DNA of 64,000 bases from a virus. Every line of letters begins with the position of its first letter. Position 1 is the stretch's first letter. Below are positions 8,761 to 50,600 of this stretch, in pieces. Location of the stretch: the IMG/VR virus record IMGVR_UViG_3300042384_001374, positions 12,100-76,099 of that record; one strand, written 5' to 3'. The notes under the pieces are model-generated. The model saw only the letters and a program-made list of their open reading frames with translations. It was not told the origin of the DNA and did no database searches. The position numbers were made by a program, and so were the translations under genes.

Positions 8761-8940
8761 TGAAAATGTCAGGAGAGAGTGGCGGGTTCGCAAGGACTTG
8801 CCGCTCTCTTGTCTGAAAGGGGCCTTGCGACATCGGGCCTGCAATAGCAAATCGACACGCAATACGAATACAGACAAACAGGGGGCGCGACCTGAACGCG
8901 CAACACAACAACCAAACTAGAATCGAACCTACCAAACATC

Positions 8941-9417
8941 ATGAATTCAGAAACCAACATCGAAAACACTGAGGCCCAAATCGAATTCCCAACCGCCGAG
9001 CTGACCGTCAACACGGGCTACATCAAACTGGAAGAGTCGCAAGACACTCCGGCCACCGTCATCACCGCCGAGCCACGCGTCAATGCAGGCGGCAAGCCAT
9101 TCATCGCCCTCACGCTTCAACTCGCCGAAGGCCGCACCAGTCACAAAATGTGGGTTAGCACCCCGGCAGCCGCTGCAAATACACTGCGCCAACTCAACCG
9201 CGCATTCGGCATCAAGGCGTTCACCGAGTTGCCATCCATCGTCGATCAAAAGTGCAGCATTAGCTCGCGCTTCGACGACTACTCGCAGCGCATCACGGTG
9301 GCATACATCAACCGCTACAACGAACACGCCAACGACGTAGTGGACCTGTCCAGCCTTGACGCGCTTGCCGCATCCGTGCCAGAAACCACAACCGACCTCG
9401 CAAGCGTCGAATTCTGA
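8941..9417 (+). CDS. putative single-stranded DNA-binding (OB-fold) protein
   Basis: Beta-rich core, acidic tail ending in Phe (DLASVEF). Confidence 0.5.
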   Translation: MNSETNIENTEAQIEFPTAELTVNTGYIKLEESQDTPATVITAEPRVNAGGKPFIALTLQLAEGRTSHKMWVSTPAAAANTLRQLNRAFGIKAFTELPSIVDQKCSISSRFDDYSQRITVAYINRYNEHANDVVDLSSLDALAASVPETTTDLASVEF

Positions 9418-9491: not shown

Positions 9492-9845
9492 ATGAAAACC
9501 ACCAAAATCAGATCAATCTTCACACGCAGCCACGCGCAACTCCGCAAAGCCCGACGTGAATACATCAACACGCAGCGCCACGCCATCCTGCAATCCGCCG
9601 GAAACGACGTAATGCACGCTGCCATCTTGGAGATGATCGACTCGGGGCTCTATGCCAAGCCTGCGTCACGGCCCAAATCCGAGCGCTCGTTCCACGACTT
9701 CCGGTTCTCAGTCGCCAGAGCCATCTGGCAAATCGAAAAAGAAATTTGGGGAGCTGAACTCGTTGGGCAATGGCATTTCTGGACCACCCGCAATGGGTTC
9801 GACATGCAGTTTGGCCGCAACCTCAAACAGCAAAAAATCGCATGA
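9492..9845 (+). CDS. hypothetical protein
   Basis: ORF from MKTTKI. Confidence 0.6.
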   Translation: MKTTKIRSIFTRSHAQLRKARREYINTQRHAILQSAGNDVMHAAILEMIDSGLYAKPASRPKSERSFHDFRFSVARAIWQIEKEIWGAELVGQWHFWTTRNGFDMQFGRNLKQQKIA

Positions 9846-10219
9846 AAACCCGCATCTTGCTCCACCTTGGCTGCCTATTACGCCGTCCGTCCCACCTTGT
9901 TTGGCATTTACGCGGCATCTTACGTGAGTTTGCGCATTGACTCGACGTTTAGCCACGGCTAAAACTTTTCACACATCAATCATTCTATGAAAACAGAAAC
10001 CTCCACCTACGTTCCCGGCTACTGGGTGCGCCGCTAAACCAACATGACAACAATCCCCACACCCCCTGAAGAATCCGGCACTGCACGCCGCGACCGTCAT
10101 CAAGTCCATCAAACGTTGATGGAGGAACAAAAAGCCCGCATCGTCACCGCCCGCGAGCGGCACAAGCGCGACCACGGCCGCATCCGCTCGTATTCAGGGA
10201 ATTTCTACTAATTTTCCAA

Positions 10220-10558
10220 GCGGCTGTAATGGTTTCGACGTAACTGGAAGACATCAAATAGCATGCAGGGGTTGATCGACTGGCCCCTTTAACAAGTCGA
10301 TCACAGACCAACTGGCAAATTGGAACTCGCGGCCTAAGCCGCAAAACGGTTGGTGAAGCGCCCGCTCCGCACCAACTACAAACCGGGCAACCAAACGCAA
10401 CTCAGCGGCGTAAAGACTGAGTGGTGGAGGATGAAAGGAGCTGCACCACAGCGCCAATCGTCCCTCGGACTGGCCCACCGTGAAGGGCCAACCCATAAGC
10501 ATGTTTGAAGTTTGATAAAAAACAGTTGCGGACGCGGGTTCGACTCCCGCCAGCTGCA
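10220..10558 (+). ncRNA. ssrA: tmRNA
   Basis: 5' GCGGCTGTAATGGTTTCGAC; 3' GGACGCGGGTTCGACTCCCGCCAGCTGCA; 7-bp acceptor stem with G3-U70; GCATG/AGCATGT helix; tag frame GKLELAA* at 10314-10337. Confidence 0.92.
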
Positions 10559-11058
10559 TTATCTTGGGTTGCGCCATATACGCACGATTCACCGACGTAA
10601 TCGGTGACCCCATATCCATCCATCGACGTGGGCGCGCAAAGTCGCGTTGTTTGAAGTAAAAGGCGAAATGCTGCCAGCTTCATTAAAACTACCTTGGCAC
10701 ACAAGCTAGCTACTTGTCACAGCATGTGGAAAATTGCGATGAAGTGTGAGCGACCTGCGGTGGATGGACATGGGGTTAAAGTTTGAAATGTAGCTTTCTC
10801 CCCACGGGACTTAATGACAACTCGCCCGATACCATGTGTTCCTTTGTCCGCTTCGCCCTCGTAAGGGGCCATTCAATAATCTGCGTCTGAAAACTGGACA
10901 GGAGCCGAAGGACCAAGGAGCACCTTGATAATCCTTCCCTGCCTGGTTCATAACGACGATCATGACAGGCCACCATTTTCTCAATGCCATGCTGCCCTTG
11001 GAACGGAATGCGTATCCTAGGAACGTCGCGTCCCTCTCGGGGCGGTGTGGCACCTCAT

Positions 11059-32655: not shown

Positions 32656-33051
32656 ATGACCAACACACCTACACTCGACCAACTCGAAGCCCTTGTCCTA
32701 GAATGGGGAAAAGCCAAAGGCATTCTCGAACACGCTACGCCAGAATCCCAGTTTCGCAAAACTCTGGAAGAGGTTCAAGAAATTGCAGACGGACTTGAAT
32801 TTGGAATTGATGAAGAAATTCTGGATGGTATCGGAGACACGGGGGTAACTCTAATCTTGCTTGCCGCCCTTAAAGGCTGGACGTTCCGTCAGTGTCTTGC
32901 GCACGCCTACGGCATTATTTCCAAACGCACCGGACGAATGGTTGATGGAATGTTCGTGAAAGATGTTCCGTCAAGCGATGATGACCTTGGTGAACTAGAC
33001 GCGTCCAAAGCTTGTCGTGTGGGTGATGAACCCTGCGAAAGCTGCCAATAA
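32656..33051 (+). CDS. MazG-like NTP pyrophosphohydrolase
   Basis: WG..KGI...Q..KTLEEV.E...DGIGD..VTL...CL..AY..I..RTG.M.DG.FVKD. Confidence 0.85.
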   Translation: MTNTPTLDQLEALVLEWGKAKGILEHATPESQFRKTLEEVQEIADGLEFGIDEEILDGIGDTGVTLILLAALKGWTFRQCLAHAYGIISKRTGRMVDGMFVKDVPSSDDDLGELDASKACRVGDEPCESCQ

Positions 33052-33283
33052 TTTTAGCCACGGCTAAACAAATCCCGTCCGTAAACAATCGGACAAATGA
33101 CCGAAGCGTGATTGCAAGCGCGTGACGGCAAGAAGCCTATATGGTAAGTGGCTCCCCATCTGCTCGGCGTGGTAACAACTGACCGGGCGCATTCTCCAGC
33201 CAACCCAACTCATAAGCGAACATTACATCGGCCGCGCCGCCGAAGCTGCCGCCCGAGCCCGTCACAACCGAATCCACAAACCA

Positions 33284-33904
33284 ATGAAAAAGACCGCCAA
33301 GAAAAAGACCGCCGCCAAGAAAGTTCCAAGCAAGCAGGCCCGCGCCTTCTCGCAAGCCTTGGAGACATTCAAGAAGCCTGAGTCCCCAATCGAACTTCAG
33401 CACGCGGAACACCTGCTTGTTCGTAAAATTGGTCAGGTGATAAAAGAACCGGCTGACAGCTTTGTGGATTTGCCTAATTCCGATCCAGTTCCAGAGCATG
33501 CCGAAAATTGGGAATCCGTGCCCAACTACGGCCCTTCCACCGAAGTGGACGAAGAAGCGATGGCTCGCGAGGTGTTGTTTGGCGAGATGCCAGTTTCTGA
33601 TGCTCATGCAGCAGCCGTAGAAGCGTCGCCGCCTAACCTTGGCCACATAGTGCCACAAACCACACCCGACGCGCCACAAACGCCCCTACACGACGAAAAG
33701 CTCGGACAAAACCTTAAACCATCCGAAACCACCGACGATCAACTCGACCCAGAGCAACTCGCCAACAACATTGAGCTGCTGATCGACTCGCTCAACTTCA
33801 TCCACGACCGGGGATGGCTGCGCAAAATGCAGGAAAAAGACATCCAAATCGTCAAAGCCCGCATTAAGTGCGGACGCAAAATTATCAGTCAACTCCGCAA
33901 CTAA
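33284..33904 (+). CDS. hypothetical protein
   Basis: Lys-rich start, low-complexity body. Confidence 0.6.
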   Translation: MKKTAKKKTAAKKVPSKQARAFSQALETFKKPESPIELQHAEHLLVRKIGQVIKEPADSFVDLPNSDPVPEHAENWESVPNYGPSTEVDEEAMAREVLFGEMPVSDAHAAAVEASPPNLGHIVPQTTPDAPQTPLHDEKLGQNLKPSETTDDQLDPEQLANNIELLIDSLNFIHDRGWLRKMQEKDIQIVKARIKCGRKIISQLRN

Positions 33905-33921
33905 TTTTAGCCACGACTAAA

Positions 33922-34134
33922 ATGGAAGAGATCAACCTTGCCGCGCCTAACCAGCAAAAAAAAAGCGGCTTTATTCTGCGTCCAACCCCGGACCCGGAAC
34001 CTCCCGTCGTCGTTCCGTGCTGCCAATACGTTCTTACCGATACCCAAGAATACTCAGTATTCTGGAATCCTTTCAACAAAGTAGTGCAATGTCACAACTG
34101 TGGACACATCTGGACCCCGGAATCCATCAAGTGA
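33922..34134 (+). CDS. small Zn-ribbon protein
   Basis: CC...WNPFNKVVQCHNCG. Confidence 0.6.
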   Translation: MEEINLAAPNQQKKSGFILRPTPDPEPPVVVPCCQYVLTDTQEYSVFWNPFNKVVQCHNCGHIWTPESIK

Positions 34135-34445
34135 GCAAAAAACCCAAAACCAAAAAAATCGGAGTCAAGGAACTGCTTGCGCTTTTAGGTGCTGATCCAA
34201 ACGAAGCTATCCCAACCGGACTGCGCGAAGCGGAATGGGCCACGCAATTAGAAGGCTGTGAACATGAGCCCGTCGGGCTTGGGAAATGCTCAACAACCAG
34301 CAAGGTAATGTTCTTGTCATTCTCTCAAGCCAAAGCCGCCAGCAAGCGCCGTCTCAAGCGCGGATCAAATGCCAACGCTTTCCGGATTTATCTGTGCCCG
34401 GATTGTTCGCACTTTCACATGACCAGCCAAGTCAAACGCTCATGA
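34131..34445 (+). CDS. hypothetical protein
   Basis: K..F.....A...RIYLCPDCSHFHMTS. Confidence 0.6.
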   Translation: MSKKPKTKKIGVKELLALLGADPNEAIPTGLREAEWATQLEGCEHEPVGLGKCSTTSKVMFLSFSQAKAASKRRLKRGSNANAFRIYLCPDCSHFHMTSQVKRS

Positions 34446-34614
34446 CTGAAACCCTACCACATAAAAAAGACGACCAAGACTTCATCGACAAACACGGCCG
34501 CAACCACACTTGCGAATGCGGTTTGACCAACATTTGGAGCCCACGTTTCGACATGTGGATGTGTTCCGGTAACCTCGCCAAATACAAAGCACTCTACAAA
34601 AATTCCCTTGAAGT

Positions 34615-34836
34615 ATGAATTCCATCTGCCACTACAAAGAAAACGAACAAGGATATTGGAATTCCGATTGCGGCAAAACATTTGACTCGATCACTTGGCA
34701 CGATTATGCCCGCGATTTTATTTGGTGTCCCTATTGCGGATCTGAAATGAATTCTGAAATGCACATGTCAAAACAAGACCTTAAAGAAGATCGCGGCGAC
34801 CGGGCGCATCAAGAAAGGAAAGATGACGAAGAGTGA
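34615..34836 (+). CDS. small Zn-finger protein
   Basis: WNSDCG...WCPYCG. Confidence 0.65.
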   Translation: MNSICHYKENEQGYWNSDCGKTFDSITWHDYARDFIWCPYCGSEMNSEMHMSKQDLKEDRGDRAHQERKDDEE

Positions 34837-35042
34837 GCGCAAAAAAGAAAACAGCCCAGCACGTTTATGCGCTAAAAGTCAGCGAGATCCTAAAAAAGCT
34901 GGGAATCCCTGAGGCCAAACAAGACAAATTCGGAAATCCTTATATCAACCCGGAATATTTGACGCGCCTTCCAGTTACGGTAAAATCTGATTACCAGTCA
35001 AAAGATTGCCACCGGGTAATTTTCAAGCTTTATAAGCAATAG
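34833..35042 (+). CDS. hypothetical protein
   Basis: GTGA-coupled ORF. Confidence 0.55.
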   Translation: MSAKKKTAQHVYALKVSEILKKLGIPEAKQDKFGNPYINPEYLTRLPVTVKSDYQSKDCHRVIFKLYKQ

Positions 35043-35169
35043 AAACAACCAAAAAACCCAAAATCATGACTACCATTGACATTGTAATTTTAATTTGGTC
35101 CGCCGTCATCGGCGTAATTTTCATTTTTTGGCATGTTTTTATCAGCGGGAGAAGGGGACGATAACTTTT

Positions 35170-35577
35170 ATGGAAAATACAATACAAAGCGAAGTAACGT
35201 TGCCATGCACGCCTAGTGATGCATTTAAAATGGTGGAATTCATTCGCCGATACAATAGGTGGAGGCGCGGCGACGAATCGCTTGAGATGGAATCACCGAA
35301 AGCCATTGGAGATGCCCTTGATGCTGTTTGCAGCTTTATAGAAACTCTAGAACGCGAGCAAGACGAATGGGTCGCCAAAGCGGTAGAGCTATGCGCCGAG
35401 CGGGAATCCAATGCCATGCAGGCGTTGGCGTATAAAGCCGAGCGGGACGAGGCGCGTGCAATGGCGCGTGACATGCGGAACCAGCTCGAAAAGGCATCAA
35501 CGGCCCGACTGCTCTTTCCTTCCGAGAACGCTGGGGGCCATGCGCCCGGAGTAAAAGATCAAGCCAATGAAAAGTAA
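35170..35577 (+). CDS. hypothetical protein reading into the first attC-like site
   Basis: YNRWRRGD...PKAIGDALD plus coiled coil (ERDEAR). Confidence 0.7.
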   Translation: MENTIQSEVTLPCTPSDAFKMVEFIRRYNRWRRGDESLEMESPKAIGDALDAVCSFIETLEREQDEWVAKAVELCAERESNAMQALAYKAERDEARAMARDMRNQLEKASTARLLFPSENAGGHAPGVKDQANEK

Positions 35578-35618
35578 CAGAAAAGCTTCTCCGGGTCGTA
35601 TGCGCTCCCTTGTTCGTC
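35523..35618 (-). repeat. attC-like site 1
   Basis: CGAGAAC..catgcg cccggag/ctccggg T cgtatg C gctccctt GTTCGTC. Confidence 0.8.
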
Positions 35619-35902
35619 CGTGGCAGGAACTCGCGACCCATGCTGACAAAACAATCACGCCGACCGTGGGTGAGACGCTGGAATACCTCTGGGATGGCTA
35701 CCGTGGAGAGGGGCAATGGAGGTCATGCACGATCACACGGATTGATGAGGGGCAATCATGGACGCGACTCCATGCCCGAATGTATTGGGGTTTCGATCAC
35801 GCGGATCGCCACCCACGCGAACAAATACTGCACCCACGGGCATTCCGTCGGACGAACGCTAGGGCTATGACGCCAGCAACTGAATCAGACCATGGAAAGT
35901 AA
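35567..35902 (+). CDS. cassette 1 hypothetical protein
   Basis: Starts in site 1, stops in site 2. Confidence 0.65.
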   Translation: MKSNRKASPGRMRSLVRPWQELATHADKTITPTVGETLEYLWDGYRGEGQWRSCTITRIDEGQSWTRLHARMYWGFDHADRHPREQILHPRAFRRTNARAMTPATESDHGK

Positions 35903-35944
35903 CAGAAAAGCTATTGAGGGTCGGGCATCAGCCCCTTGTTCTCG
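35851..35944 (-). repeat. attC-like site 2
   Basis: GACGAAC...T cgggcat C agcccctt GTTCTCG. Confidence 0.7.
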
Positions 35945-36251
35945 GTCTTTTGATGACCTACTGGAGAGCTTGGACGCATGGATCGAGGACGCGCTAAAAG
36001 GCTCGAAGCCTATCGGACTAACGCTATCCCGCGCCCGCACCACCATCACCGATCAAAGGGATAGGATCGGGGAAATCTTCGATGCGTTGGAATGCCAGAA
36101 TAAGGAAGTGGAAAAGCTCCGCGCCGCCATCCGAAACCTCCGCGATGTAAAGGGACGCCATCATACGCAAATCGCCACGGAACAACTCTTCGCCCTTCTT
36201 CCCGAGAACGATGAGCCCATGCGCGGCGAAAATGGAACGAATATGAAATGA
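35892..36251 (+). CDS. cassette 2 hypothetical coiled-coil protein
   Basis: Starts in site 2, stops in site 3. Confidence 0.65.
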   Translation: MESNRKAIEGRASAPCSRSFDDLLESLDAWIEDALKGSKPIGLTLSRARTTITDQRDRIGEIFDALECQNKEVEKLRAAIRNLRDVKGRHHTQIATEQLFALLPENDEPMRGENGTNMK

Positions 36252-36294
36252 AATTGAGGAGCTTCTGGCCGTCGAATGCGGCGGCTTGTTCTCT
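36203..36294 (-). repeat. attC-like site 3
   Basis: CGAGAAC...gccg T cgaatg C ggcggctt GTTCTCT. Confidence 0.75.
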
Positions 36295-36328
36295 GAATCA
36301 GCCCGAATAACACGAACGACGACGATCA

Positions 36329-36538
36329 ATGAAAGACGAAGATATAGCCGATGCCGAAGCGCAAGGATTTGCTTCCCTCAAGTGGGACGCCGCCGAAAAT
36401 CGAGATATCAAAACCGCCCTTGAAATGCAAAAGGCGGAAACGGAATCACTTTGCCGTCTGGCGAAGATGATTGAACAACCCGACCCGGAAGATCCAACGA
36501 AAGCCGCCGACTGGTGGAAACCTGAAACCGACCAATGA
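36329..36538 (+). CDS. cassette 3 gene a, hypothetical
   Basis: ORF, ATGA-coupled to next. Confidence 0.6.
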   Translation: MKDEDIADAEAQGFASLKWDAAENRDIKTALEMQKAETESLCRLAKMIEQPDPEDPTKAADWWKPETDQ

Positions 36539-36948
36539 AAAACAACCGCACGCAAAAAGAAGTGATCCAAGAACGCCAACGAAATGCCGGGTCCAATATC
36601 GCGGCGTATCTGCCAAAACCTCCTGGATCGTATGGAAACCCTTACGAACGGCAACAGACCGCAAACAAGCCGCAGCATCTACGTCCTGATTCGGAAGGCT
36701 GGTGGTGGAGGCTTTGTAAGGGCGAGTGGGAATGCGGCAAGGCTGAATACATCCAGTGGGAAGACGCTGGAGAACCCGAACAAGAGCGAGTATTAGCGTG
36801 GTCCCGTGGAGGATGTTACACGCGATGCGACCAAATCAACCTTCGCTTGGACTCTGGGACACGCTGGTTCAAAGCAACTCCGCCCATCTTGGATTCAGAG
36901 AACACAACCAGCCCATCTACGGGCGCAACTGAAAAAGATCATGAGTGA
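36535..36948 (+). CDS. cassette 3 gene b, hypothetical
   Basis: PDSEGWWWR motif; stops in site 4. Confidence 0.6.
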   Translation: MKNNRTQKEVIQERQRNAGSNIAAYLPKPPGSYGNPYERQQTANKPQHLRPDSEGWWWRLCKGEWECGKAEYIQWEDAGEPEQERVLAWSRGGCYTRCDQINLRLDSGTRWFKATPPILDSENTTSPSTGATEKDHE

Positions 36949-36993
36949 GAAAATGGAAAGCGATAGCCCGTTAGATGCGGCGACTTGTTCGGC
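36897..36993 (-). repeat. attC-like site 4
   Basis: AGAGAAC..catcta cgggc/gcccg T tagatg C ggcgactt GTTCGGC. Confidence 0.8.
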
Positions 36994-37306
36994 TCTTCTT
37001 GATGCCTCGCTCGACCTGCTCGCCGGATGGTGCGATGCCGTGAAAAACGGCGGCACTGGGTGGGATGATTGGGACGGATGGTATAAAGACGCCTGCTATC
37101 GCCCCGGCCCGCTGCGCGAACTGATCGATGCTCGCATAGCGAAGATCGCCGCCGATGAATCTGAATGTCCGAGATGCCATGCAACGCGCACATATTACGA
37201 CGGGTGGAACTGTCCGACTGAAGGATGTGATTCTTTGCCGAACGCATCAGCGATGGCACCGCCGCCCCAGCGGCTGCCATCCACGAAGGACGTTCCCGGC
37301 GGTTGA
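36941..37306 (+). CDS. cassette 4 hypothetical protein with Zn finger
   Basis: GTGWDDWD.WYKDA; CPRC..C....C. Confidence 0.65.
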   Translation: MSEKMESDSPLDAATCSALLDASLDLLAGWCDAVKNGGTGWDDWDGWYKDACYRPGPLRELIDARIAKIAADESECPRCHATRTYYDGWNCPTEGCDSLPNASAMAPPPQRLPSTKDVPGG

Positions 37307-37326
37307 CCATCCGCGTCTTGTTCTGG
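37237..37326 (-). repeat. attC-like site 5
   Basis: GCCGAAC..gatgg ca ccgccg/cggcgg T tg A ccatc..ctt GTTCTGG. Confidence 0.8.
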
Positions 37327-37349
37327 GTCTTTTTGGGGGCGCGAAAAAA

Positions 37350-37401
37350 TATGAGAATCTCATAAAATAAATGTTGACCTTGTGCGAGAATCTCGTAATG
37401 T
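37350..37401 (+). promoter_or_regulatory. sigma70-like promoter with two inverted-repeat operators
   Basis: TTGACC(37374)-16 bp-TAATGT(37396); TATGAGAATCTCATA at 37350 and CGAGAATCTCG at 37385. Confidence 0.7.
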
Positions 37402-37447
37402 CTCCCCAGTTGCACGACGCAACGCCAACACCAAACCAAACACGAAA

Positions 37448-37720
37448 ATGAAAATCACCATCAGCCACGACCAAGACAGCATCGACCCATCCGCCACCTA
37501 CTCCGACGAGCAATTCGTGGAAGTCCGCAAGGCTCTCGAAGCCGAATACGAAAAGGCCATCCTCGCCGAATACCCCGAAGCCGAAATCGACTTCAGCGGC
37601 ACTGACACCACCTACGCGATCCGCGTAACCGGAACCGAAATGGATGACCCGAGCGAGATTGAGGAGAACGTGCAAAGCATCTGCGAAAGCGTCTTCGAAA
37701 CCGGAAACTTCTGGATCTAA
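37448..37720 (+). CDS. cassette 5 small highly acidic protein (anti-defence candidate)
   Basis: 90 aa, very D/E-rich, followed by an HTH gene. Confidence 0.7.
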   Translation: MKITISHDQDSIDPSATYSDEQFVEVRKALEAEYEKAILAEYPEAEIDFSGTDTTYAIRVTGTEMDDPSEIEENVQSICESVFETGNFWI

Positions 37721-37905
37721 TGTTCGCCGATCAACTCAAAGATGAGCGCAAACGCCTCGGCCTGACACAGGCCGGGGCGGATGCCGTCCTCGATACCTGT
37801 CGGGGACAGGTAGCCGCATGGGAAAGCGGACGCAACACGCCGCACGTCCTCACTCAGGAGGGAGCCTTGGCACGCCTCCGCAACCGGAAGACTCCGCGCA
37901 AATGA
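37720..37905 (+). CDS. XRE/Cro-type HTH regulator (Aca-like)
   Basis: LKDERKRLGLTQ..A...L......VAAWESGRNTP. Confidence 0.85.
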   Translation: MFADQLKDERKRLGLTQAGADAVLDTCRGQVAAWESGRNTPHVLTQEGALARLRNRKTPRK

Positions 37906-37912
37906 TTCTTCC

Positions 37913-38035
37913 CCAGAACGCAATAGGTGAGGCACGGGCGGACAACGCCAGCCCGCCACAAGATCAAAATCTCTAATCACATGGAAACTCCGAATCAAAC
38001 CGACCCGCCCGTTGACCTCGACCGCCTTGTTCGTC
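37913..38035 (-). repeat. attC-like site 6
   Basis: CCAGAAC..gagg ca cgggcgg/ccgcccg T tg A cctc G accgcctt GTTCGTC. Confidence 0.8.
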
Positions 38036-38280
38036 CTTCTTGGTTCAAGGGGGACGCGGCTTGCGACTGGCATGAAGATGCTGGCCACGAGAACGGCAGC
38101 TACTACTGCAAGTGCCTCGACTGCGATGCTGACTTCGTGGGGCATAAACGCCGCCACATCTGCCGCAAATGCCACTACGAAGCCAAGGCCAGATATGACG
38201 CTCTGACCCCCGAAAAACGGGCGGCATTTGATGAAAAACGAAACGCCGAAATCAGGGCATTCTTTGAGACGAACGCCTAG
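37981..38280 (+). CDS. cassette 6 Zn-finger protein
   Basis: DW.ED..HENG.Y.CKCLDC...F.GHKRR..CRKC. Confidence 0.7.
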   Translation: METPNQTDPPVDLDRLVRPSWFKGDAACDWHEDAGHENGSYYCKCLDCDADFVGHKRRHICRKCHYEAKARYDALTPEKRAAFDEKRNAEIRAFFETNA

Positions 38281-38356
38281 CTCATGCACCCGCCCATGAA
38301 AGACTCCGAATCAAACAAAGACGCTCCGGCGGGTTGCATGAAGCGACTTGTTCGTC
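38268..38356 (-). repeat. attC-like site 7
   Basis: GACGAAC..gct catgca cccgcc/ggcggg T tgcatg A agcgactt GTTCGTC. Confidence 0.8.
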
Positions 38357-38541
38357 CTCTTTATTCGATGCAGCGATGCAGGAAGGATAATTCCAGATAC
38401 GGGAAAATCCACTTCGCGCATCATGAATTCGAAACGCTTTGTGGGCTGACTACGGATTCCGACTGGTGGGTTCTCACAAACAGGCATGACGGCGATGCGA
38501 CATGCGCAAAATGTATTAAGACGAACAGCAGTTGTTCGTAG
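38296..38541 (+). CDS. cassette 7 Zn-finger protein
   Basis: H......TLCG...TCAKC. Confidence 0.65.
   Translation: MKDSESNKDAPAGCMKRLVRPLYSMQRCRKDNSRYGKIHFAHHEFETLCGLTTDSDWWVLTNRHDGDATCAKCIKTNSSCS
38520..38540 (-). other. attI-like simple recombination site at array end
   Basis: ACGAAC-agcagtt-GTTCGT, inverted cores with a 7-bp spacer and no long stem. Confidence 0.45.
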
Positions 38542-38600
38542 TGCCCGACCGCACGAATAATCAGCGAAGCAAATAATGAAATTTTAGTTGAGGCTAAAAC

Positions 38601-41600
38601 CTATTTGTTTTCTTTGCGAATCACCTCGCGCATTTCGGCGCGCTTTTCCGCTCTCGGCTCTCTGGCAAACGGAATAGCTTCAAATGTCAAATAGGTGGCC
38701 GCGTCCAGCAACGAAGCCGCCCGGTTGCGTTGCGCTTCCCTGCTCATCAAATATTGCGAAGTAAGGACGCCCGCTTCCAGCGCGTCGTGAGCCATAGCGG
38801 TAGGTGCGGTCAAGTCAGCCAGTGAACCGTGCCACGAGTCTTTGTAAGAGCGAATGGTAACACCGTTCTTGTCGTAGCTTCCAAAGCCTGCTTTAAGCTG
38901 TTTGCGATTAAACGTGTTGTTTAATCCAGCGGCTCCGGCAATTGCCATCGGGTTAGTGACGGTTTTCTGCACCAACCCGGAGACCGGTGCGTAACCCGCC
39001 ATTACCCCCAGCACTGGCACTGCTGTGGTTAGTTCCAGCAAGCTTCTGGAAGCAATTTCAGCAAATGCCGACGCCTGCGCCGCGTCTGCTTTTTTGGTCT
39101 GGTCAAACAATTCCCGTTTGTTGCCAAACGTGATGGTTTTAATGACTTCGCCGAGCATAGAGCTTTTTTTGTCCACGAACATCCACTCGTTGGCGAGTTT
39201 CTGAGCTTTTTTCTGGGCCTTGTCATCATCGTCGCCGCCTGCCAAAAAAAACAAATAAGACACCATTGGCACCAGCATTTGAAGCTTAAACGGGTAAAAC
39301 AAAATGTTTTGGGTCAGTGAGGTGACCACGTTCTCCAGCGCCTCTTTCTTGGTTTCCGCGTCAGCCTTTTCATCAAACAAAATGGGCACCAAAACCGAAG
39401 TGTTGGACGCCATGCTCGACGTGTGATTGCTGAAGCGCACCATCGAACGCCACAGCGCGTTGCGGCCGGGCGAAGATGTCCGGTTCTGAAACATCCACGA
39501 TTTCTTGCTTTGGTCCGACTGAGCCATCACATCGTTCACCTTGCGCCGGGCGTTGCTCTTTGCCATCGCGGTGGGCTCGACGTTCGATTTGACCACGTCG
39601 GCCGGTTCCATCTTCATCTGGTCAGCCAGCTCGACAATGAACATCGCCGTGGACAAGTAGGACTCACCCTTGCCAATAGTCCAATGAAGCGCCTTCTCGC
39701 CGAGCTTTTCGTATTCCCGAAGCCCTTTGCCAGCAAGGTTCTTGGCCGTGCTTTTCCCAAACCTGACTTGGCTGTGCATGATGTCACGCGCCACATCCGC
39801 GCCGTCCGCCGAGCGGTAATACACCGAACGGTCGGTCTTGCGGACAAACTCCCGAGCCTGTTCATTGAATTTTCGGTCGGTGATCAGCTTTTGCAGGATG
39901 CTGAAGTATTGCGCTGCTTGCTTGCCCTTTCCAACCGCAATCTTGCCAGCGGCATACCCTACTGAAGGGCCTGTCGTCTGGTTCCAAACTTGTTGAAGGC
40001 TCGCCAAAGCCCGGACTATGTACAACGATCCGAGAAAGCGCATTGCTTCCGCGCCACCCGTGTTGCTCACTCCGTTGGCAGCGTCGTTTTGGAGGATCGT
40101 CTCGTTTTCTTCCGCGATGGCGGAAAGAGCTTGGCGAAACTTTTTAATCTCGTCCTCAGCTTCCTGCTTGGCTTTGCGCTGGGCCGGATCGTTCCAGTCG
40201 ATGTCGTCAGGAATCATCTCGTTCGCTTTATTGAGAAAGTCACCGTCTTTGATGGTGTTCACGCCGTGCTCATCCTGCACCACGCGGCCGAGTGAACGCC
40301 GCAGCACCTCGTAAGTCGGAGTGACGTTCAGCTTATAGATAGCGTCGTCCAAAAGCGAAAGCGGCGCGGTAAGTCCGTTCAATGAAATCGGACGGAACGG
40401 ATTGCGGGAGTTGAAGTAGCCACCCTTGCCGTAGCCGCCGAAGAACGACGAGTCCTTCAACGACACCATGTCGATGGGGTCGGCGATGAAGCGGTCGGAA
40501 CTGACCTGCTGCTCTGCCGGGTCGGGGCGTGCCGCGTAACCAACACGCAGCGGCACGGACGAATAGGTAATCTTGAATGCCTCCTTAGCGTCGTCCCGCC
40601 ACGACTCGCCCGTCACCATGCGCTCGCCCTTCAGCAACTCGCCCGGCTGCTTGTCCACCGCCGCATCCTGCGACAACATCGCCATGGTAAGCTGCATCGC
40701 GCTACTGATGTCGGCAAACGACCTGTTGAGCTGCTGGGCATATCCTTCGACCGCAGCCTCGTTACCCAGAGTGACTTTCGATTCAAGCAGTGCAATGAAT
40801 TTGTCCGTCAGCTCTTTCGCTATTTCCGGCGAGCTAATGATGGTATTCGAAATGCCGGATTCCAGCATCCATCCGCGAACTTCCCGAGCCAGTTCCAAAT
40901 CACGGATCATGTCGAGATTATCCGCGTTCCAGTAGCGGTTCAGTTTTGGAATTACTTTGCCGGTCGGAATAGGATTTTTGTTCGCATCCAAAACAGCCTT
41001 GCCATCCGGGCCTTTTACCAGCTCGCCAAAATACAATCCTTGCGCCCGATTCAGGTTTTCCAACTCGTTCAGTCCACGCCCGATGTCGGTAACCAAGCGG
41101 TTGGTCGCCGTCTCGCGGTGCATTCCGAATGCTGTGTCGATGCCTCGGAACACCGAAATGAGGTAGCCGATGGTTTGGTCTTTGGCGTTATTACCAATCG
41201 GCTTGGCCGCCTTGACGATCTTTTCCTCCTCCGCTTTTTTGGAAGTCTCATAGCCTTGGCGTCCGCTGGTGCCGTCGATGCCATATTCGATGAAGTCTTG
41301 CAAATGGATAGCGGCTTGGCGGGCAGCGAAGTTGCGGCGGAACTTGCTACGAATGCGAGCGTCTTGGTGATGCAAGAATTTCAAGGCTCCCAATTCCAGA
41401 GCATGCTTCTTGCCGTCAAACGATACAAAATCAGTAATCAGGCACTTCTGGATTTCTATTGCTTCAATTTCGGCGAACGCCAGCGAAAACACCGGCTCCA
41501 CCCGGAAAGCAAGCATCCGGCTGACATCCATGTCCTTGACTGAAGATCCGCCCACTTTGGCGAACTCGCCCGAATCAATCGACTTCAACAAGGTTTTGAT

Positions 41601-44600
41601 CTTAGCCTTGGTGCTGTCGCTAAGCCGGGTGTCGCCGTGCGCGATGACCAACCGTTCGATCATGTAACCAAATTGGTCGAGCTGCTTCTTAGACACGTCG
41701 CCAGTCAGGTCGGCGGTGCGTTTTGCACCAGTAACCGAACTCATCGCGTCGTCCAGCCATGTCTGCATGCCTTTCCGCCAGTCGTCCGAAAATGCCTTAG
41801 CGGCTTCACCTTTTTTCAGGTTTTGTTTAGCCGGACTAAAATCAGCGCCGTCAAAATCCTTGCCAACTTCTTTTTCAGTTCCGGCAAGGAAGTAAGAATA
41901 AGACCCTTGCGCTGGCACACCTTGATTGACTGGCAGTGCATCAAGGATAATGCGCTCCATCTCACGGTTGACGTTGCGCTTGGTAATCTTTGGAAAGTGC
42001 TGCATCAACAACTCGCGGGCGTTGAGCGGCATCATGATCACCTTCTCGCCCTCTTGGTTGATGAGAACACCCAGCTTTTCCTTCCGGAGCTGGTGACTCT
42101 TTGGCAGGTTGATTTGTTTGACGCGGTTTTGGGCGGTGCGGGTCAGGGTGAGTGCCTCTTCCGGGTCGGACAGGTAGGCTGCGGCGTCGGCCGTCATGCC
42201 CTTGTATTGCGCTTCCTGCGCGTCGGAGTGGGCGTCCTGCATCACCTCTTTGACAATTTGCTCCTCAAGCTGCACCAAGTCCACCGCTTGGTTGATGGCT
42301 TTGAGTGGGTCAAAGTTCATGAATTGGTCGCGAGAGCCCCGAACAAACTTGTAGGCGTCCTCAATGCGGTTTTCAGACTGCTCAGTAAGAGCTGTAATGA
42401 CGGCTTTCTGTCGTATCCAGTAGTCTCTGCGGGACATAGTGCCAGACGGCTCGCTTGAAGCGCTTGCAGGTGCCTGAACGTCGTCAGAAACAGGCGGCAA
42501 GGGGTTTGTCAGTGTCAGCTGTGCTTTGTATGTCACTTTTTCGTCGATTGCCTTGGTCAATAAACCTCCAGACTGATCGTTTTTTTGACCCTGCGACGCC
42601 CGCCCCGAATAATAACCCATCCCCACTGGCACTTTGCCTTTGTTGCTGTCGATGACGGACAGTTCGTTGCGAGTCTGCTCCAGTTCGCGCTCCACCCGTC
42701 CGAGGTAAATGGCAGCTTCCTTACGGCCCTGTTCCTGCTCCACGCTGCGGGCCTTACTGGAAAGCAGCGCCCGTGCTTGGTTGGTAGTCAAAGCGATGTC
42801 TTGAAGGGCTCTTTGAAGATCCACTCCAATCAAAACCTGTTGTTTTTGAGTGGATAAATTCTCAAAATTGCGAGCAGCACGAAAGATTTCATCAATTGAT
42901 TGTTCAGGATCAGAAACAAAACCTTCGTTACTATCCAGCAACTTGTTAATTTCCTCGTCGATAAACGCGGGCAAGTCAATGGTTTCGTTCTTCATCAACT
43001 CCTCTGACACCATCCGCATGAACGCGTTGGTCTGCATCTTTGGTTTAGCCCCGGCCGTCACCCCTTGGGTAATCTCACGGACCATGTTGTCCATAAACCC
43101 TTGGGCAAACTTGCGGCCGTTGAGCATTCCAGACAGCGAGTTCATTACGTCGGTTTGTTCCTGACGCGTGAAATCGTCGGTTTCCTTGAATGTTTTTAAA
43201 CGGAACCCGCTCAGATTCGCTTTTTTCGGGTCCACCCCGGTCCAGCGCATCACTTGACGGGCGTGCATCTCGGCGTGCGAGTTGAAGATGGAAACGTGCA
43301 GGTTGAACAAACGGGCAGCGTCGCTGATGCGGCTGTTGATGCCTTGCGTGTCGCCCTGTGGCAGCTCGTTGTTCTCGTCCGGAGTGAGCAGGGTGTTGCG
43401 TTCGCGGACCAGCGCGCCGATGGCGTTGGCTTGTTTGTAAAGCCCGTCCACCGCCGCTTTGAGCTGCGGGTTGTTTTCCATGCCCTCGGTGAGCATCAAA
43501 TGCACGACATGCCCAAGATTCGCCGCATTACCGGAATCATCTTTCATCATTTCCGCAAAACGGGTGACGTGCGCCACCACCATGTCCCGAGTCTCCGCTT
43601 TCAGAGATTCGGACCAGTCTTTAGCCGTGGCTAAAAGGTTTGCACCTTCCGGGCTGTTGTCCAACAACTCCTGAAACGCCTGACCATTATCCGCTTCGTA
43701 AGCGCCGATCTCCGCCAGCAGCGCCTCGCGCAGCTCGTTCAGGCGAGTTTGGTTCTTTTCCAGCGTGTCGAGCGACAGCTTGGCTTCCAGCTCCGCTGCA
43801 TCCAGCACGCCAGCAGGCAGCGCCATCCGAATCGACTCCATCATCGCGTCGTCCAACGGCAAATTTACATCCACAAGCCCAAACCCGGACGCATCGGCAT
43901 CCTTTGAAAACTTAGAAATGGCCTTTTTCACAACCGCAGCACCCACCAGCGTCCGCACCGCAGGCGCACGCAGCAACAATGAACTGTTGGTCGAGTCGAT
44001 GTTTCTTTTTTGAAACGCGATGTTCTGTGACGTGCGACCGCTCACCTTTGGGATAGTCAGGTTGCGCATCTCACCGACATACATTTTGGTTGCCGCTTTC
44101 AGTCCTTTTTCAACGTTGCCTTGCAATGCTGGTCCCGCTACCGCAATGCGGAGCTTGTCAGTGCTGATGCCTTGGCCGGTCGGGTCAAGCGGGGCGCTCA
44201 GGATGTCGCTGGTCGTGCGTTCGTTGGAAGGAGCCATCGGGAATACCCCGCCAGCCGCTTTGCCCTGCTCTATGATGCGGGCAAGCCCGTTGAACAGGAA
44301 CGCGTCGGACGGATTGAGCCCGTTGCCTTGAAGCTCCTTGGCCAAGCGCTTGTTGATGCGCGGCGCGTCAGGACCAAAGCGGTTGGCTTTGCGGTCGTCG
44401 TCAAATTTTGTAGACTGGCGTCGGCCTTCCATTATTTCCTGAAGTTCTTCAAATGTCTTCGCTTCTTTGAGTGCTTCAATCTCCGGAGCGTCCGGGGTGC
44501 TATCATACCAGTTATAATTGTCGGATTCCTCCTCGTCCAACGTGACCGATTCTTCGGTGGCGCGGTCCACATGATCTTGATCGTGCTCTTGAGCGCCTGT

Positions 44601-47600
44601 GTTGGCCCGCAGGATGTTGCGGATGCCTTCCTGAAGCGCCAGCTCTACCGGCTCGGCCAGCAAAGTGTCGGCAAAGCCGTCCACTCCGATGTAAACCTTG
44701 TCGAACAACTCTTTGGCTTTCGGGTTAGTCAGCACTTCGGCGACAATCAGAATGTCAGACGCCGTCGATTGGTCGTCGCCAAACATGTTGATGAGAGCCC
44801 CGCCGTCACCATCCAAGCGCAGCGTGCGTCCAAGCTCAGCCACGTCAGACAAGTGTCCAGACGGGTCCGCCGCAATCGACTCGGGGAAGACGGCCGGGTC
44901 AAGCGACAGCCGGATGATCCGCGCCATCTCCGCAACCTGCCCGCGCACCGCTTCGTTCTTCGACGCGATCTTGAGCGACTGGGCGATGCCGCCGAAGCTC
45001 TCGGTGGCGTTTTTGTCCGGATTCTTCTGGCTACTTGGCGAATACACCACGTTTGGTCCGCCATCCGTTCCGGGGAAAATTTTGAAGCCAACATCATCCA
45101 ACCCGTAGCGAGTCACTTGGCTGTCCTTCGGCGACACGACCAACGTCTCGCCCGGAAACGTCTGGATGAGCTGTGACAAAATCGGGTTGCCGATGCCGTC
45201 GATGCCGTGGACCAGCATCGAGGCGTCATACACCATCACCTCGTCGTTGCTGGTCATGCTGCCCTTCAACATCCGGGCAATGGCATCAGACTCTTCTGGC
45301 GAAGCCATTGAATTGGTCTGCAAAGAACTTTTTGCCACTTTGCGATATTTTTTAACATCGCGTTTGACGGGTTTTTTCGGTGTTCCCTGCTTGACCTGCT
45401 CCAAGTAATGTTTTGAGTCAAAACGCTCACCCGCGCCATTTTCCAATGACCAGAATTTACTTCCCGATCCTTCAACGTAAGAAAGAATGGTATTGGATGA
45501 CTTTCCTTGCCATCCCTCACCACGATACGCCCATTGATAACCATTTTTGGCATTCGGAATTTTAGGCAGTCGGGAAAATAACAATTCCTCATCAACCGTT
45601 TCATTCACAATGAACTCTTCATCCGTTTCCACGTTTCCGCCAGAATACTTGGGAGGGTTTACACCCGGATTGTTAATGGTTCCGTTCGTATCCACGATTT
45701 CCTCAACCCGGCCAGCAGCCAGTTTAACCACAGCAAGCGCTCGGCCGATCTTGTGGCCCGCCTTAGCTTCTTCAACGATGGTCGCCTCAAACGACTGCTT
45801 AAGTTCCAACAAGCTCACTAGCACCGTCTCAACCGATGGGGTTTGCCCAGTCAAGTTGGATAGCTCTTTTTCCATTTCATCGTAGAACGCTTCCGGATTG
45901 CTCATGCTTTTGGCCAGCGGGAATGTGCCCCGGATGCCCTTGCGGACGAGCTGGCGTTGTTCGTCGCGGCTTTTGTGGTCGTTCTCCATTGCCCACAGGT
46001 CAAACAGGAAGGCACGTCCAGCGTCGATGTCGAGCGTGTCGCCGTTGCTCTGCGAACCAATCATCAAAGCGGCTCCGGTAAGCGCCATGCGGCGTTGGTT
46101 TTCGGGTCCAGCAGCTTGGTCGATGGCCACTTCGGCAGCCGTCTTCACGCGGTCACCGTCCAACGACTCCATCATGGATTGAACCGTTTCCGAACGATTA
46201 GTGCGCTTGTCGTCATCAAACACATTCGGGTCAGTAATGTTGCCCGTTTTGTTGTAGATCATCGGCATAACGCCTTCGCCCCGATTGGAACGGTTGATCA
46301 TCTCCAGAAGCTCAAAGGCGAAGTTGGAACCAAACACGTAGTCGCGCTGTTTTTCGTGGAACTTCATCAGCCACGAGAGGTTCGACAGGATGCGAGCGTC
46401 AATCGGAGCATCGCGCAGGCGCTCAAGCTCCGCATTGTCTCCCGTGTAGGAAGCTTCCCGCTGCCAGCGTGATCCCTCGAACGCCACGTTGTCACGCCAT
46501 TGCTGGTCGCGAAATTCTATCAGTGCCTTGTTGGTGAGGCGGGCCGCGTCGTTCGCACCATCCAAACGGGCACGCACGTTTACGATCATCCCGTCGAACA
46601 ACTCGGCTGCCACCACTCCGTGGTCTTTTGTAAGAACCATCTGCAAGTCGTCCAGCAAGCGGATCAGGCCGTTGGTTTCCGTCTCCCCGCCGATCTGACG
46701 CAGGAATGCCTTGTTGTTGAACTGACTTTCAATGAGCCCCTTCACCCGGCCCGCCAGTGTCTGTTTGCCGCCAAGCTCGGTGATAAGCGGCGCGAAGCCA
46801 TCGGCAATATCCTCCTTCGGCTGGCTGACCAATGCGACAGTTTCCTTGGCCCATGCTTCCATTTGGGAGACGTGCGCGATAAGCGCTTTGCGGGCTGGCT
46901 GGTTCTTGTCACCCTTGCCCTTGGCGAGCTTCTGCGCTTCGTTGGACGCTTTGAACACAAGGTCGTTGAACATCTTTACGTCCGCCGTGCGGAACGCGTT
47001 GGCGGCGCGATAGCGGTCAGCCCCGATCTCCGAATTAGTGTCCTTGGGCAAGGCAAAGCCCCCGGTGTGCCAGTAGGTGTCCGCTTCCTTGGTGTCACCA
47101 ATCTTGCCGTCCACCCAGTCCACGAAGAATTGGAGCCACTGCATGCGCCCGGCATAGGCGGCGTTGCTGTTGCCAGCAATTTCAATAACGGCACGCTCTT
47201 GGTTGTCCATCACCTGATCCGGAGTCAACGGGTCCATCCCCTTGCCTTCTTCATACCAATGCAGCTTTGGACGGAATCCGAGATAGCGGCCGGTGTCTTC
47301 AAAGCGCACGCCAAACGTATCGTTCTTGTTGCTAGACGGCGCGATGCTCGGTGCGGACAAGTTGTCCAATGCGGACGGGCTTGAGATGCTAGTCGGGAAG
47401 CTCAGGCCCTCACCGCGCCCTGTGCGAGCTTCGCGGTTCAGGTCGCGCATGCCCAAGCCAAATTCTTTCGGCCGCGTCCACACGTCCCCAAACGCAAGAC
47501 GCTGAAGGTTCTGGATCGAGCCGTTGTAAGTGTCCAGCGCTTCCTTAAACTGCATAAATTTTGACATCCGTTGAGACGACAAAGGAACTTCCGGGACATC

Positions 47601-50600
47601 CCATTGAACCGAAAAAGATTTGGCTTCAGCCTCCGAAGCGCTGCGACGTGCATCCGCAAGTTCAGTTTCGAGAATTTGTAATTGGTCGGCAACTTTAACC
47701 ATAGGCAACATCACATCATCAGATGTTGAAATAAGCGGCTCTGCCGTTCGTCCCATGTATGATGAATGCTGCTCCAAGTTGACAGAGCGTTCCAAAACCC
47801 GAGCTTTCAAACGCTTCATGATGGTCGTCACGTCATTCGGGTTGATGCCTTCACGGTCAAATGGATTCTCCAATCGAAACCTTTTAGCCGTGGCTAAAAT
47901 CGAACGACGCCCAATGTTCGTGCGCGGGTCCATCGCATTGATCAAAGTTTGATCGCGTCCAGCTTGCTTCAAGCGAAGCATCGCCATCTTTCCTTCAATC
48001 GCCCGGACACGTTGTTTGTGCATGACGGAAAGCTGGCGGTAATCTTCAGCCTGCTGTTCTTTCGGCACCGTGTTGTCGATGTGCTGACGGATGCGGGACA
48101 GCGTCTTGCCCGCATCAGGACCACCCAGCTCCAATGCCGGTGTGATGTCAAAGTCCATTGCCGCCATCCGTGCCTCCATTACCTGACGGTTGAGAAACAC
48201 CAAAGTCTTGGCCCGCTCAAAACCAGTTTGATCAGCTGACAAATCCGATTTTTCGTCGTTGATGTCGGCCAACAGCGCGTCAATGCGCTGCATCGCGGCG
48301 GACGTTCCCGAGTCGTCCAAAGCAAAATCGGCGACGTACTTCTCAAGGTAGTCTTTGATGATCGGTTTCAGGCTCATCGCCAGCGTCTCGCCGTCGATGT
48401 CGAACACGCTCTCGAACTTGGTGTTGGGGAACTGGTCCACGATTTGGCGCAACTCCGTCACCGCTTGGAAGTGCTCGGCGGTGATTTTGTTGCCCCACTT
48501 CAAGTGGGCCTCGGTGCCTTCGCGCTGCATCTCCAGCGTGCGCTCCAAAGCATCTTCCCGAGCGAAGTTCACGTCCCCTTGCACGCCAGCCTGACGGTAT
48601 GCTTGATCCAAGCGGAACAACATCTGTTGCTGGCTTTGCGGGAGCTGACCGATGGTCCAGCGCATCGCGAGGATGTTCTTAATCCGGTCGGAGTAGCGTT
48701 TCACCAACGCGGCCACCGTGTTAACCAGCTTGCCGATCTTGCCAGTCTCGTCCGCGTCCATGTTGATGGACCCTTGCAGCCACTGGCTTTCGTTGCGCAC
48801 CGCACGTTCAGTGTAAGAGCCGCTATGACGAAGCTGGTGCAGTTTGCGGATCAGTTCCGCCGCTACCGCGTAGTCTGCGCCCTTGACGAATTTCAGACCC
48901 TTAGCCTTGTCTTTTTCCTTCGGGTCCACTGAACGGCCGGGGTAGCGTTCCGCAGCCGTCTCAACCAGCAGTTTGTAAAATGGATGTTCCGGATTCTTGG
49001 CGATGTCCTTGTAGAGCTGTTCCAGTTCGGCGTCCTCAAAAACGTCCTTGGTGAGCAGGTGGAGCGTTTCTTCGTCCACCCAGTAAGCCAAGACCCGCGC
49101 CACATCGGCGGCAAGGATGTTTTTGGCCAAATCAGACGACATGTTCACCCCGGCGTATTGTTGGCGAAGTTGCTCCTTCAACTTACTGAAGTCCACCTCG
49201 ATGCGGTTGGTCTGCAAATTGGCCCTTAAGAAAGAAGCTCCTTCTTTAGACAAATCCAGCTCTGCCACTTTGTTTTTAAAGTTGGGCGATACCACATCCA
49301 TCACGCCGCTCAATGCCGAACGAACTTGTGAGACAGTAACGCTTCCATTGGCGATACCGGGAAGCAGCGGCTTGATCAGTTTCGCCGCTTCCGTAAGCCG
49401 GGTCTTGTTCCACTGGATGTTGCGCACCCCTTGGTTAAGCGTGCGCAGCGAAAGTCCTTCCGGCGACAGGCTGACTTTGCGGAACGTCCACTTGCCGTTC
49501 TTCGCAGAGTCGAGCACGAGAATGGAATCGGGCTCACCTTGGATCAGGACAGTCTGCCCCACTTTCACCGAGAGCGTCTGGCCCTTTGGGGCCTTGTAGG
49601 TGTAAACGATCTTCTCCCCCATGCCGTCCTGCACCGCGTTCTCCTTGGCGCGTTCCTGCTCGCTCTGCTCCTGCATGTTGACCCGCTCCCACTTGCCGCC
49701 AGCCTCGTCGGTCTGGCTCTGCTCGATGGTGTCGGACGCGACGATCAGAGCGCCCTCCGGGTCTACTGCGTCAATCGCGGAGCCCTCAAATTTTTCATCA
49801 GACACTTTGAGCGCATCCAGTTTGGCAATGGATGAATTGTTCTTCCTTTTCCTTCTTGGAAGACGCCGTTTGCCTTGACTTCTGTTTTGCGCTAACTGGC
49901 CATTCATTCCAAACGACCTGTATCCAAGCACCCGAGTTTTTGGAAACGCAGCGACATTTACCGAATCTTCGGAATTACCACTAAGCAAAATGACGTGGGT
50001 TGATGTTTCGCCAAGAACAAAGCCCGTATGTCCGCCCCAACCATTTTTCCCGCCAGTGGCCGGATTGTTGTTCCAAAGGACCGCAACGTCACCGTAAGAT
50101 GGAGATGTGGTTTTTTCACCCATATTCAAAAACGCTCTGGCTGAGAAGTTTTTAACGGACGACCCACCCTGTCTCAGTGACCATGATGTGAATGCGGTGC
50201 ACCATGGGAAAGTGGAAGGGCTCTGAGAAACGCCCAAGCTGACCAGCATCGACTTAATTCGAGATGAACTTTTCTCTTTTTCGTTAAGCAATGCGGCCCC
50301 GGCATTCACCGAAGGATCACTTCCCTGACGCAACCACCACTTGCTGATTTTTCCGGGCAAGACAATCGCGTCATCCGGCCCGAATTCATTGCTTGATGCG
50401 ATAAAGTTCTCGGTGGATTCAAGACTTGGCCCCACATTAGTCGTCTTTGTCTCCACCTCAACCAATGGCGCGGGAATATCAATGCTGACGATGGACGGAA
50501 AAGGAAGCGTCGACTCGTCAAGAATCGCTACGTTGTCTTTCGCCACCAACGGCAATTCATTGGAACTTGAATCAAACTCGGCATCTTCAAATTCATCCTT

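Follow-up and report, generated by a model that had tools for sequence, protein, structure and literature searches.

A phage attC array with its genes on the bottom strand and its cassette junctions in frame

A 64,000-nucleotide stretch of viral DNA, referred to here as the window, carries an array of seven integron-type attC sites with genes that lie on the opposite strand from those of classical cassettes. The window comprises bases 12100-76099 of the IMG/VR record IMGVR_UViG_3300042384_001374, a phage genome of 76,099 bp that is considered complete because the record has direct terminal repeats. The + strand of each site corresponds to the bottom strand of attC, crossover takes place at the left-hand AA^C (the caret marks the point of exchange), the genes are inverted relative to the sites, and open reading frames (ORFs) run across the cassette junctions in frame in a layout suited to coupled translation. 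We give this reading as a whole a probability of about 0.8.

In mechanistic terms, the seven hairpins are attC sites of a phage-borne integron lineage, kept in this genome as a CALIN (an attC cluster without an integrase). With crossover inside the left-hand triplet, a cassette consists of the C, the hairpin interior, the right box and an ORF ending in xxxxAA, and its gene lies on the bottom strand, pointing to attI and intI. The ORF would usually begin within its own attC, at an ATG located in the purine-rich loop at the tip of the hairpin, and would have no stop codon of its own. Instead, it would cross the recombination point with AAC read as Asn and take its stop from the next attC, or from attI, beside or overlapping the next ATG. 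Any order of cassettes would then yield a gap-free chain of ORFs in a fixed register.

The attC sites and the cassette signature

A first-pass annotation of the sequence had placed seven sites in this region, and all of them lie where it put them (Table 1). They are imperfect hairpins of 83-117 nucleotides (nt) with the form GAAC...CTTGTTC, accompanied by one terminal half-site, and their lengths fall within the range of about 57-141 nt expected of attC. The pattern GAAC-N50-80-CTTGTTC has 9 matches in the window, compared with 1.6 expected, and no shuffled sequence reached 9. Six of the seven sites are among these matches, while site 6, with 117 nt, is beyond the spacing of the pattern. When folded on the + strand, the sites are made up of an R box of 5-8 bp, an internal loop corresponding to the unpaired spacer of attC, two or three short stems interrupted on the 3' arm by single-base bulges, and a large terminal loop that contains the upstream stop and, mostly, the next ATG. 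A conserved T on the 3' arm is bulged in the window sites and paired in some relatives. The families of loop sequences that had been proposed are also real, as motifs shared between loops were found. Within the genome's first 12 kb, two additional GAAC...TTGTTC candidates were judged to be chance matches.

Sites of the same kind are present in other viruses. A loop motif in common with the 39-kb viral record G001 gave the first relative; a scan with this motif returned 16 loci, the sole real one being L016. A degenerate pattern of the 3' arm gave more than 20 distinct sites in other viral records. A scanner based on folding constraints was unspecific, finding equally many matches in reversed sequence, and was replaced by a covariance model for which 29 sites had been aligned. 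In this alignment 88.5% of the cells are paired, compared with 26-50% in slid controls, compensatory change is seen at ten pairs, and AAC and GTT are invariant. The model returns the seven known sites in the window and nothing else; elsewhere it detects co-oriented arrays of 5-9 sites in several records, and the site family as a whole is found in more than 20 other viral records. Individual sites can be closely similar between records: attC 3 is 83% identical to one site of G011, a record that encodes an integron integrase (IntI), and attC 6 alone is 97.7% identical to a site in locus L022, where it sits amid unrelated genes. One further locus (L036, the 4,068-bp record G008 of the terminal-repeat class) packs nine attC sites into 4 kb, with identical scores for the first and the last; G008 may be a circular or tandem assembly of nothing but a cassette array.

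The boxes of these sites are matched across cassettes and not within sites. On average, 4.6 of the outer 6 nt of a right box can pair with the left box of the site that follows (at least 4 in 43 of 48 pairs), while a right box compared with its own left box scores 2.4/6 and random pairs score 2.27/6. In the window, comparison by hand shows that each adjacent pair of sites matches over 7-10 nt. The sole explanation for complementarity across the cassette, as opposed to within the site, is a crossover inside the core.

This signature bears directly on whether the hairpins are integron sites at all. They sit at gene junctions in an early/middle gene block of a phage without a recombinase, an Rfam scan of 33000-39500 gave no match, and the consistent G.T pairs of the + strand (at one position in 23 of 29 sites) would suit an RNA fold just as well. 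Hairpins of this description could be RNase III-type processing sites or modules resembling the PeSL elements of T4, with only a convergent likeness to attC. Against this, the outer boxes are complementary across the cassette and not within the hairpin, a pattern explained only by crossover in the core. Furthermore, four records have sites of this family right next to an integron integrase, many relatives have the textbook cores GTTAGGC and GTTATGC, and no promoter motif is conserved inside the sites. A non-integron origin is extremely improbable.

Recombination polarity and shared cassettes

In the bottom strand of attC, the cleaved AAC is located 5', extrahelical bases are found on the opposite arm, and the unpaired parts are purine-rich (Nivina 2016, PMC5027507). 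For the counts of bulges, loops and frames given here, 75 non-redundant sites were used. Their + strand folds have 179 bulges, mostly T and C, on the 3' arm opposite AAC and 46 on the 5' arm that contains it, and the loops are 59% purine on the same strand. Where an array ends next to an intI gene, the order is half-site then intI, the reverse complement of the classical order intI-attI-cassette. In shared cassettes, homology sets in 2-3 nt ahead of the C in the left AAC and continues through the site into the ORF, with differing genes upstream; this is seen between the window and G001, among L085, L103 and L143, and between L050 and L109. By every available criterion, namely bulge side, loop purines, array ends and shared cassettes, the + strand is the attC bottom strand and the sites are inverted relative to the genes, as the first-pass annotation had proposed.

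The clearest of the shared cassettes is that of G001. Its match to the window covers 35526-35860 only, with 89.6% identity, and its two ends are precisely the left GAAC of site 1 and the left GAACGCT of site 2. Helicase identity between the two phages is only about 45%, and attC 1 and the ORF C1, which together are 90% identical in this unrelated phage, have therefore moved laterally as one unit. It had been predicted that homologues would keep their N-terminus and vary in the tail that follows the terminal Asn, and close homologues do so. The G001 copy of C1 retains the N-terminus with a changed tail after ..RRTN, the point past which the C1 homologues P0001-P0006 diverge, and P0007, with 95% identity to C0, departs from it only past the Asn. 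In the C0 family, most of the 21 homologues that were read end in xxN followed by a variable tail; one homologue carries a label that assigns it to a Verrucomicrobiota metagenome-assembled genome.

The alternative is the classical orientation, in which the + strand would be the top strand, crossover would fall at the right-hand G^TT, and a cassette would be made up of an ORF and its downstream site. The box-complementarity test is equally compatible with a crossover on either side. Two sets of homologues are better accommodated by this arrangement: the ORFs of L082 and L109 are 89% identical with homology that begins at the right box, the interiors of their upstream attC sites not being common, and the N-termini that C0 and C1 derive from a site vary among their distant homologues. 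However, the bulges are mostly on the arm opposite the AAC of the + strand, the loops are purine-rich on that strand, the ends of the intI-adjacent arrays consist of a lone left half-site after the cassette body with no full site, the homologous segment of four to five shared cassettes opens at the left AAC and takes in the ORF downstream, and the 95%-identical homologue has altered its tail only. Taken together, these data make the classical orientation very unlikely. That each cassette owns its upstream site, as originally claimed, is therefore borne out by the four to five shared cassettes but not by the L082/L109 ORF or by the distant homologues with other sites. From the latter it follows that right-box exchange or rapid site turnover also occurs. 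The pairing of site and ORF is not permanent, and the near-identical sites found beside unrelated genes may represent attC families like those of chromosomal integrons, or again right-box exchange.

Coding strand and the stop/start layout

The coding strand was established from substitution patterns. Between the window and G001, 28 of the 32 substitutions in the body of C1 are at third codon positions of the + strand frame, which is stop-free and gives 95% amino-acid identity, while all - strand frames contain stops. Three more pairs of cassettes behave in the same manner, with 7/10, 19/27 and 16/21 substitutions at one codon position of a stop-free + frame. A count of the longest open frame per cassette body (36 vs 14) was not decisive because antisense frames are often open, and the codon-position counts were used in its place. 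The recognisable genes, a DNA methyltransferase cassette in the record G016 and a helicase in L022, are also on the + strand. Coding on the attC top strand and reading away from attI, as in the classical orientation, is thus not what is found; with the genes on the bottom strand, the ORFs read towards attI and intI, opposite to the classical direction.

The frame of the junctions is equally regular. Of the 65 sites that have 30 or more codons upstream, 61 carry AAC in the reading frame of the incoming ORF, where one third would be expected, and 57 contain the stop of that ORF. A stop in frame 0 is present inside 69 of all 75 sites, and stops in the other two frames in 35 and 48. At least 48 of the 67 sites with an outgoing ORF contain an in-frame ATG. 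In 24 of 41 cases this ATG and the stop overlap (offset -8 to -1), and in 34 of 41 they are no more than 8 nt apart. The arrangement suggests that the in-loop ATGs are used as starts and that translation is coupled at the sites. In locus L022, a 391-amino-acid DEAD-box-type helicase (4302-5521) has its ATG in an attC loop and a site-encoded N-terminal peptide, and the layout is therefore not restricted to small accessory ORFs.

In the window itself, the Asn codons through which ORFs were said to enter the sites (SEN, RTN, PEN, SEN, LPN, ETN and KTN) proved correct on re-reading. The additional claim that each stop is accompanied by the start of the next gene stands for sites 1, 2, 4 and 7, with stop/start pairs at 35577/35567, 35902/35892, 36948/36941 and 38280/38284-38296, and falls for the other three. 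The ATG at 36248 in site 3 opens an ORF of 20 codons, and the real gene begins at 36329, outside the site. Site 5 has no start, the next gene beginning at 37448. Site 6 starts the next gene and receives none, as the upstream helix-turn-helix (HTH) gene stops at 37905, 11 nt short of the site.

It is possible that the attC sites and inverted genes are real and that the stop/start layout reflects nothing more than genome compaction, the downstream genes being translated independently and the tails being neutral. No Shine-Dalgarno motif is present near the in-loop ATGs, the start lies outside the site for site 3, site 5 and the last G016 cassette, and the tails of homologues vary freely, all of which speaks for compaction. 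On the other hand, the frame rule (61/65), the excess of frame-0 stops over the other two frames and the frequency of ATG/stop overlaps are far from what compaction on its own predicts. The ATG is also positioned in the unpaired loop, and the first codons of a gene are paired with the last codons of the gene upstream. We regard compaction as an unlikely explanation of the layout, while giving it more weight than is warranted for a classical orientation or a non-integron origin.

Several observations weigh against the coupled, bottom-strand cassette array. In addition to the L082/L109 pair and the distant C0 and C1 homologues, many of the similarities between records involve the site alone and are uninformative on the side of crossover. 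The R box is mostly xGAAC/GTTCx, and the outer core bases in the 29-site alignment are likewise mostly GAAC/GTTC, not RYYYAAC/GTTRRRY, although relatives include GTTAGGC, GTTAGCC and GTTATGC. Site 2 folds poorly, and sites 3 and 5 contain no functional start. Finally, the phage has neither an integron integrase nor a tyrosine recombinase, and mobility of its cassettes needs an enzyme acting in trans.

Integrases, known systems and the phage genome

A six-frame search of the 76-kb genome turned up neither an integron integrase (TIGR02249) nor any type of tyrosine recombinase (PF00589, E up to 1). The array, with seven co-oriented sites on one strand within 2.9 kb and no intI nearby, is therefore a CALIN, for which two or more co-oriented attC sites are the usual requirement. 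Its cassettes would presumably be moved by the IntI of the host or of a co-infecting phage.

Relatives of the array do have such an enzyme. Tyrosine recombinases are encoded in 5 of 22 site-bearing records, and for 4 of those 5 the best family is integron integrase. The protein common to G007 and G016 (L136:1141-2112) scores 287 bits on TIGR02249, above the NCBIfam cut-off of 265, while those of G023 and G011 score 195-203 bits, under the cut-off, with TIGR02249 still their best family. The G007/G016 protein aligns over its full length to VchIntIA (IntI4, PDB 2A3V; E 1e-53), and the alignment includes a stretch that we take to correspond to the insertion typical of IntI. G016, itself a genuine phage, encodes a replisome organiser, DnaB, both terminase subunits (small and large) and a tail fibre. 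Between its replication and packaging modules is a complete integron (L139, 6322-10728) made up of six attC sites, the DNA methyltransferase cassette (7407-8336), attI and intI (9757-10728), all on the same strand. One of its cassettes (8446-9035) contains two small opposite-strand ORFs (8452-8724 and 8734-8931) with AT-rich DNA upstream; the pair looks self-expressed and, by layout only, like a toxin-antitoxin module.

The array abuts intI in four records. What closes the last cassette body is a half-site on its own, GAGAAC-AGTTAAATTC in G016, GAGAAC-AGTGAATTG in G023 and GCGCAAC-AGTAAATTCC in G011 (hyphens mark the end of the left box), and in these three the start codon of a co-directional intI follows about 40 nt past the half-site. 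The junction reads GAAC-AGY in the window, G001, G016 and G023 (GAAC-AGC in the first two) and CAAC-AGT in G011, and it supplies a stop 2-6 codons beyond the Asn. In the window, the half-site gives C7 its last 4 codons and stop. The three intI-adjacent junctions (L139 9690-9757, L141 700-753 and L142 630-681) have the core AAC-AGTnAATT in common, a candidate for the attI of the lineage.

Two further loci resemble this arrangement in part. In G001 (L020, 1242-3180), an array of two cassettes is located between an attP-like 3' fragment of tRNA-Thr with a promoter-like stretch and a divergent tyrosine recombinase, which starts about 45 nt after the GAGAAC-AGC junction, in the position taken by intI elsewhere. 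This protein was rejected as a diverged IntI, as it has no TIGR02249 match, scores only 23 bits on PF00589 and does not resemble the phage IntI; the tRNA-Thr fragment, used as a host probe in genome contigs, gave no match. In Virus Rctr41k (KX853513; L144, 4680-5678), a gene annotated as 'xerD integrase-like' is 39% identical to the phage IntI. The locus was rejected as an example of the same architecture, since it has only weak model matches that are on the opposite strand and downstream of the gene; possibly this GenBank virus carries a reverse integron of the Treponema type.

The phage arrays have much in common with classical integrons, including the imperfect hairpin with AAC/GTT cores, the unpaired spacer, bulges on one arm and a variable loop; a crossover in the core, by which a circularised cassette regains a perfect R box; and, in the records with intI, an attI beside the 5' end of that gene, the IntI having a stretch that aligns to the IntI-typical insertion. 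They differ in that the coding strand is the attC bottom strand, with the genes directed toward attI and a co-directional, downstream intI, the ORFs cross the recombination point in frame without a stop of their own, the predicted start codon is in the attC loop, and the core is mostly GAAC/GTTC. The integron model requires a single cassette orientation so that the Pc promoter at attI can express the cassettes. A Pc reading out of attI cannot express the phage cassettes. Repeated stem-loops at accessory gene junctions and modular shuffling are also features of the PeSL modules of T4-type phages, in which each stem-loop accompanies an early promoter and recombination is homologous; the phage sites differ from them in the integron core signature and the association with IntI.

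Clusters of attC sites in phages have already been published. Virulent-type phages carry CALINs with several co-oriented attC sites and no intI, and these sites are substrates of IntI1 (Qi et al. 2023, PMC9892861). The cassettes of those phages are in the typical orientation or have sites in mixed directions, and the study reports neither in-frame junctions, in-site starts nor a lineage-wide inverted coding strand. The 'reverse' integron of Treponema denticola (Coleman 2004, as described in PMC4909258) has intI upstream of the array and ORFs that read away from attI. As in the phages, its intI and cassette ORFs run in the same direction; on that description, however, the phage systems fall outside the class, as their array is upstream of intI and their ORFs read into attI and intI. 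A literature search, which was not exhaustive, found no account of bottom-strand cassettes, an in-frame crossover codon or in-site starts; that the inverted coding strand and in-frame junction were not found described is absence of evidence only.

We lean slightly towards a distinct, phage-associated class of integron, defined by recombination at an Asn codon, cassettes that bear a start and no stop, a coupled operon leading into intI, and no Pc. A whole lineage has kept the recombination polarity of integrons and yet placed its genes on the other strand. If the coupling holds, it would give integrons a second route to the expression of shuffled genes and be a case of site-specific recombination that routinely joins open reading frames; if the class is distinct, it would provide phages with a combinatorial store of accessory genes that does without a Pc promoter. 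The system also bears on how phages exchange small accessory genes and on the origin of new cassettes and attC sites. Annotation is affected too: software for gene calling or integron detection that looks for an ORF with its attC behind it would assign these cassettes wrongly.

Table 1. Sites and cassette ORFs of the array (window coordinates; R1, covariance model score of the site in bits)
Feature	Position	Strand	Description	R1
C0	35170-35577	+	135 aa, most distal ORF; last 17 codons and stop within attC 1	
attC 1	35526-35615	+	90 nt; C0 stop 35575-35577, C1 ATG 35567	75.5
C1	35567-35902	+	111 aa	
attC 2	35854-35941	+	88 nt, poor fold; C1 stop, C2 ATG 35892	48.8
C2	35892-36251	+	119 aa	
attC 3	36206-36291	+	86 nt; C2 stop; in-site ATG 36248 opens 20 codons	77.7
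Two-gene cassette body	36329-36948	+	36329-36538 (69 aa), 36535-36948 (137 aa)	
attC 4	36900-36990	+	91 nt, left box GAACA; stop 36946-36948, ATG 36941 or 36953	71.1
C4	36941-37306	+	121 aa	
attC 5	37240-37323	+	84 nt; C4 stop 37304-37306; no internal start	39.2
Two-gene cassette body	37448-37905	+	90-aa ORF, weakly DinI-like; 61-aa HTH (XRE-type) ORF	
attC 6	37916-38032	+	117 nt; C6 ATG 37981	44.7
C6	37981-38280	+	99 aa, Cys-rich	
attC 7	38271-38353	+	83 nt; C6 stop 38278-38280, ATGs 38284 and 38296	63.7
C7	38284-38541	+	81-85 aa; C-terminus ..KTN-SSCS, then stop	
Terminal half-site	38521-38539	+	ACGAAC-AGCAGTTGTTCGT; short palindrome closing the array; attI position	

The cassette proteins give few indications of function, the only hints being the weak HTH and weak DinI-like matches listed in Table 1 (aa, amino acids). 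Database searches with parts of the array gave no match: the array against GenBank phages (blastn), C1 in a tblastn search and an alignment of C1 against genome contigs and metagenome contigs all returned nothing, as did searches for related loci with C4 and with the C-terminus of the giant protein described below. The 5' end of C0 (35170-35216) looks like the degenerate remains of an attC loop and 3' arm (repeat families D7 and D16). Upstream of the two-gene body at 37448-37905, a promoter-like TTGACC-17-TAATGT is visible by eye and is absent from the listing of a promoter scan. A pyrimidine motif, TTC(C/T)TTCC, precedes several left boxes in the window (35516-35530, 36196-36210 and 37906-37920) and is also found at the array end of G001 and upstream of the copy of site 6 in L022.

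A DnaB-like helicase gene precedes the array region. At the other end, 60 nt separate the array from the stop of a convergent gene of 5,280 codons (38601-54443, - strand), in which a CHAP/NlpC-like stretch can be recognised by eye. Farther away, a 965-amino-acid ORF on the - strand (342-3239) contains an intein splicing domain (Pfam PF14890).

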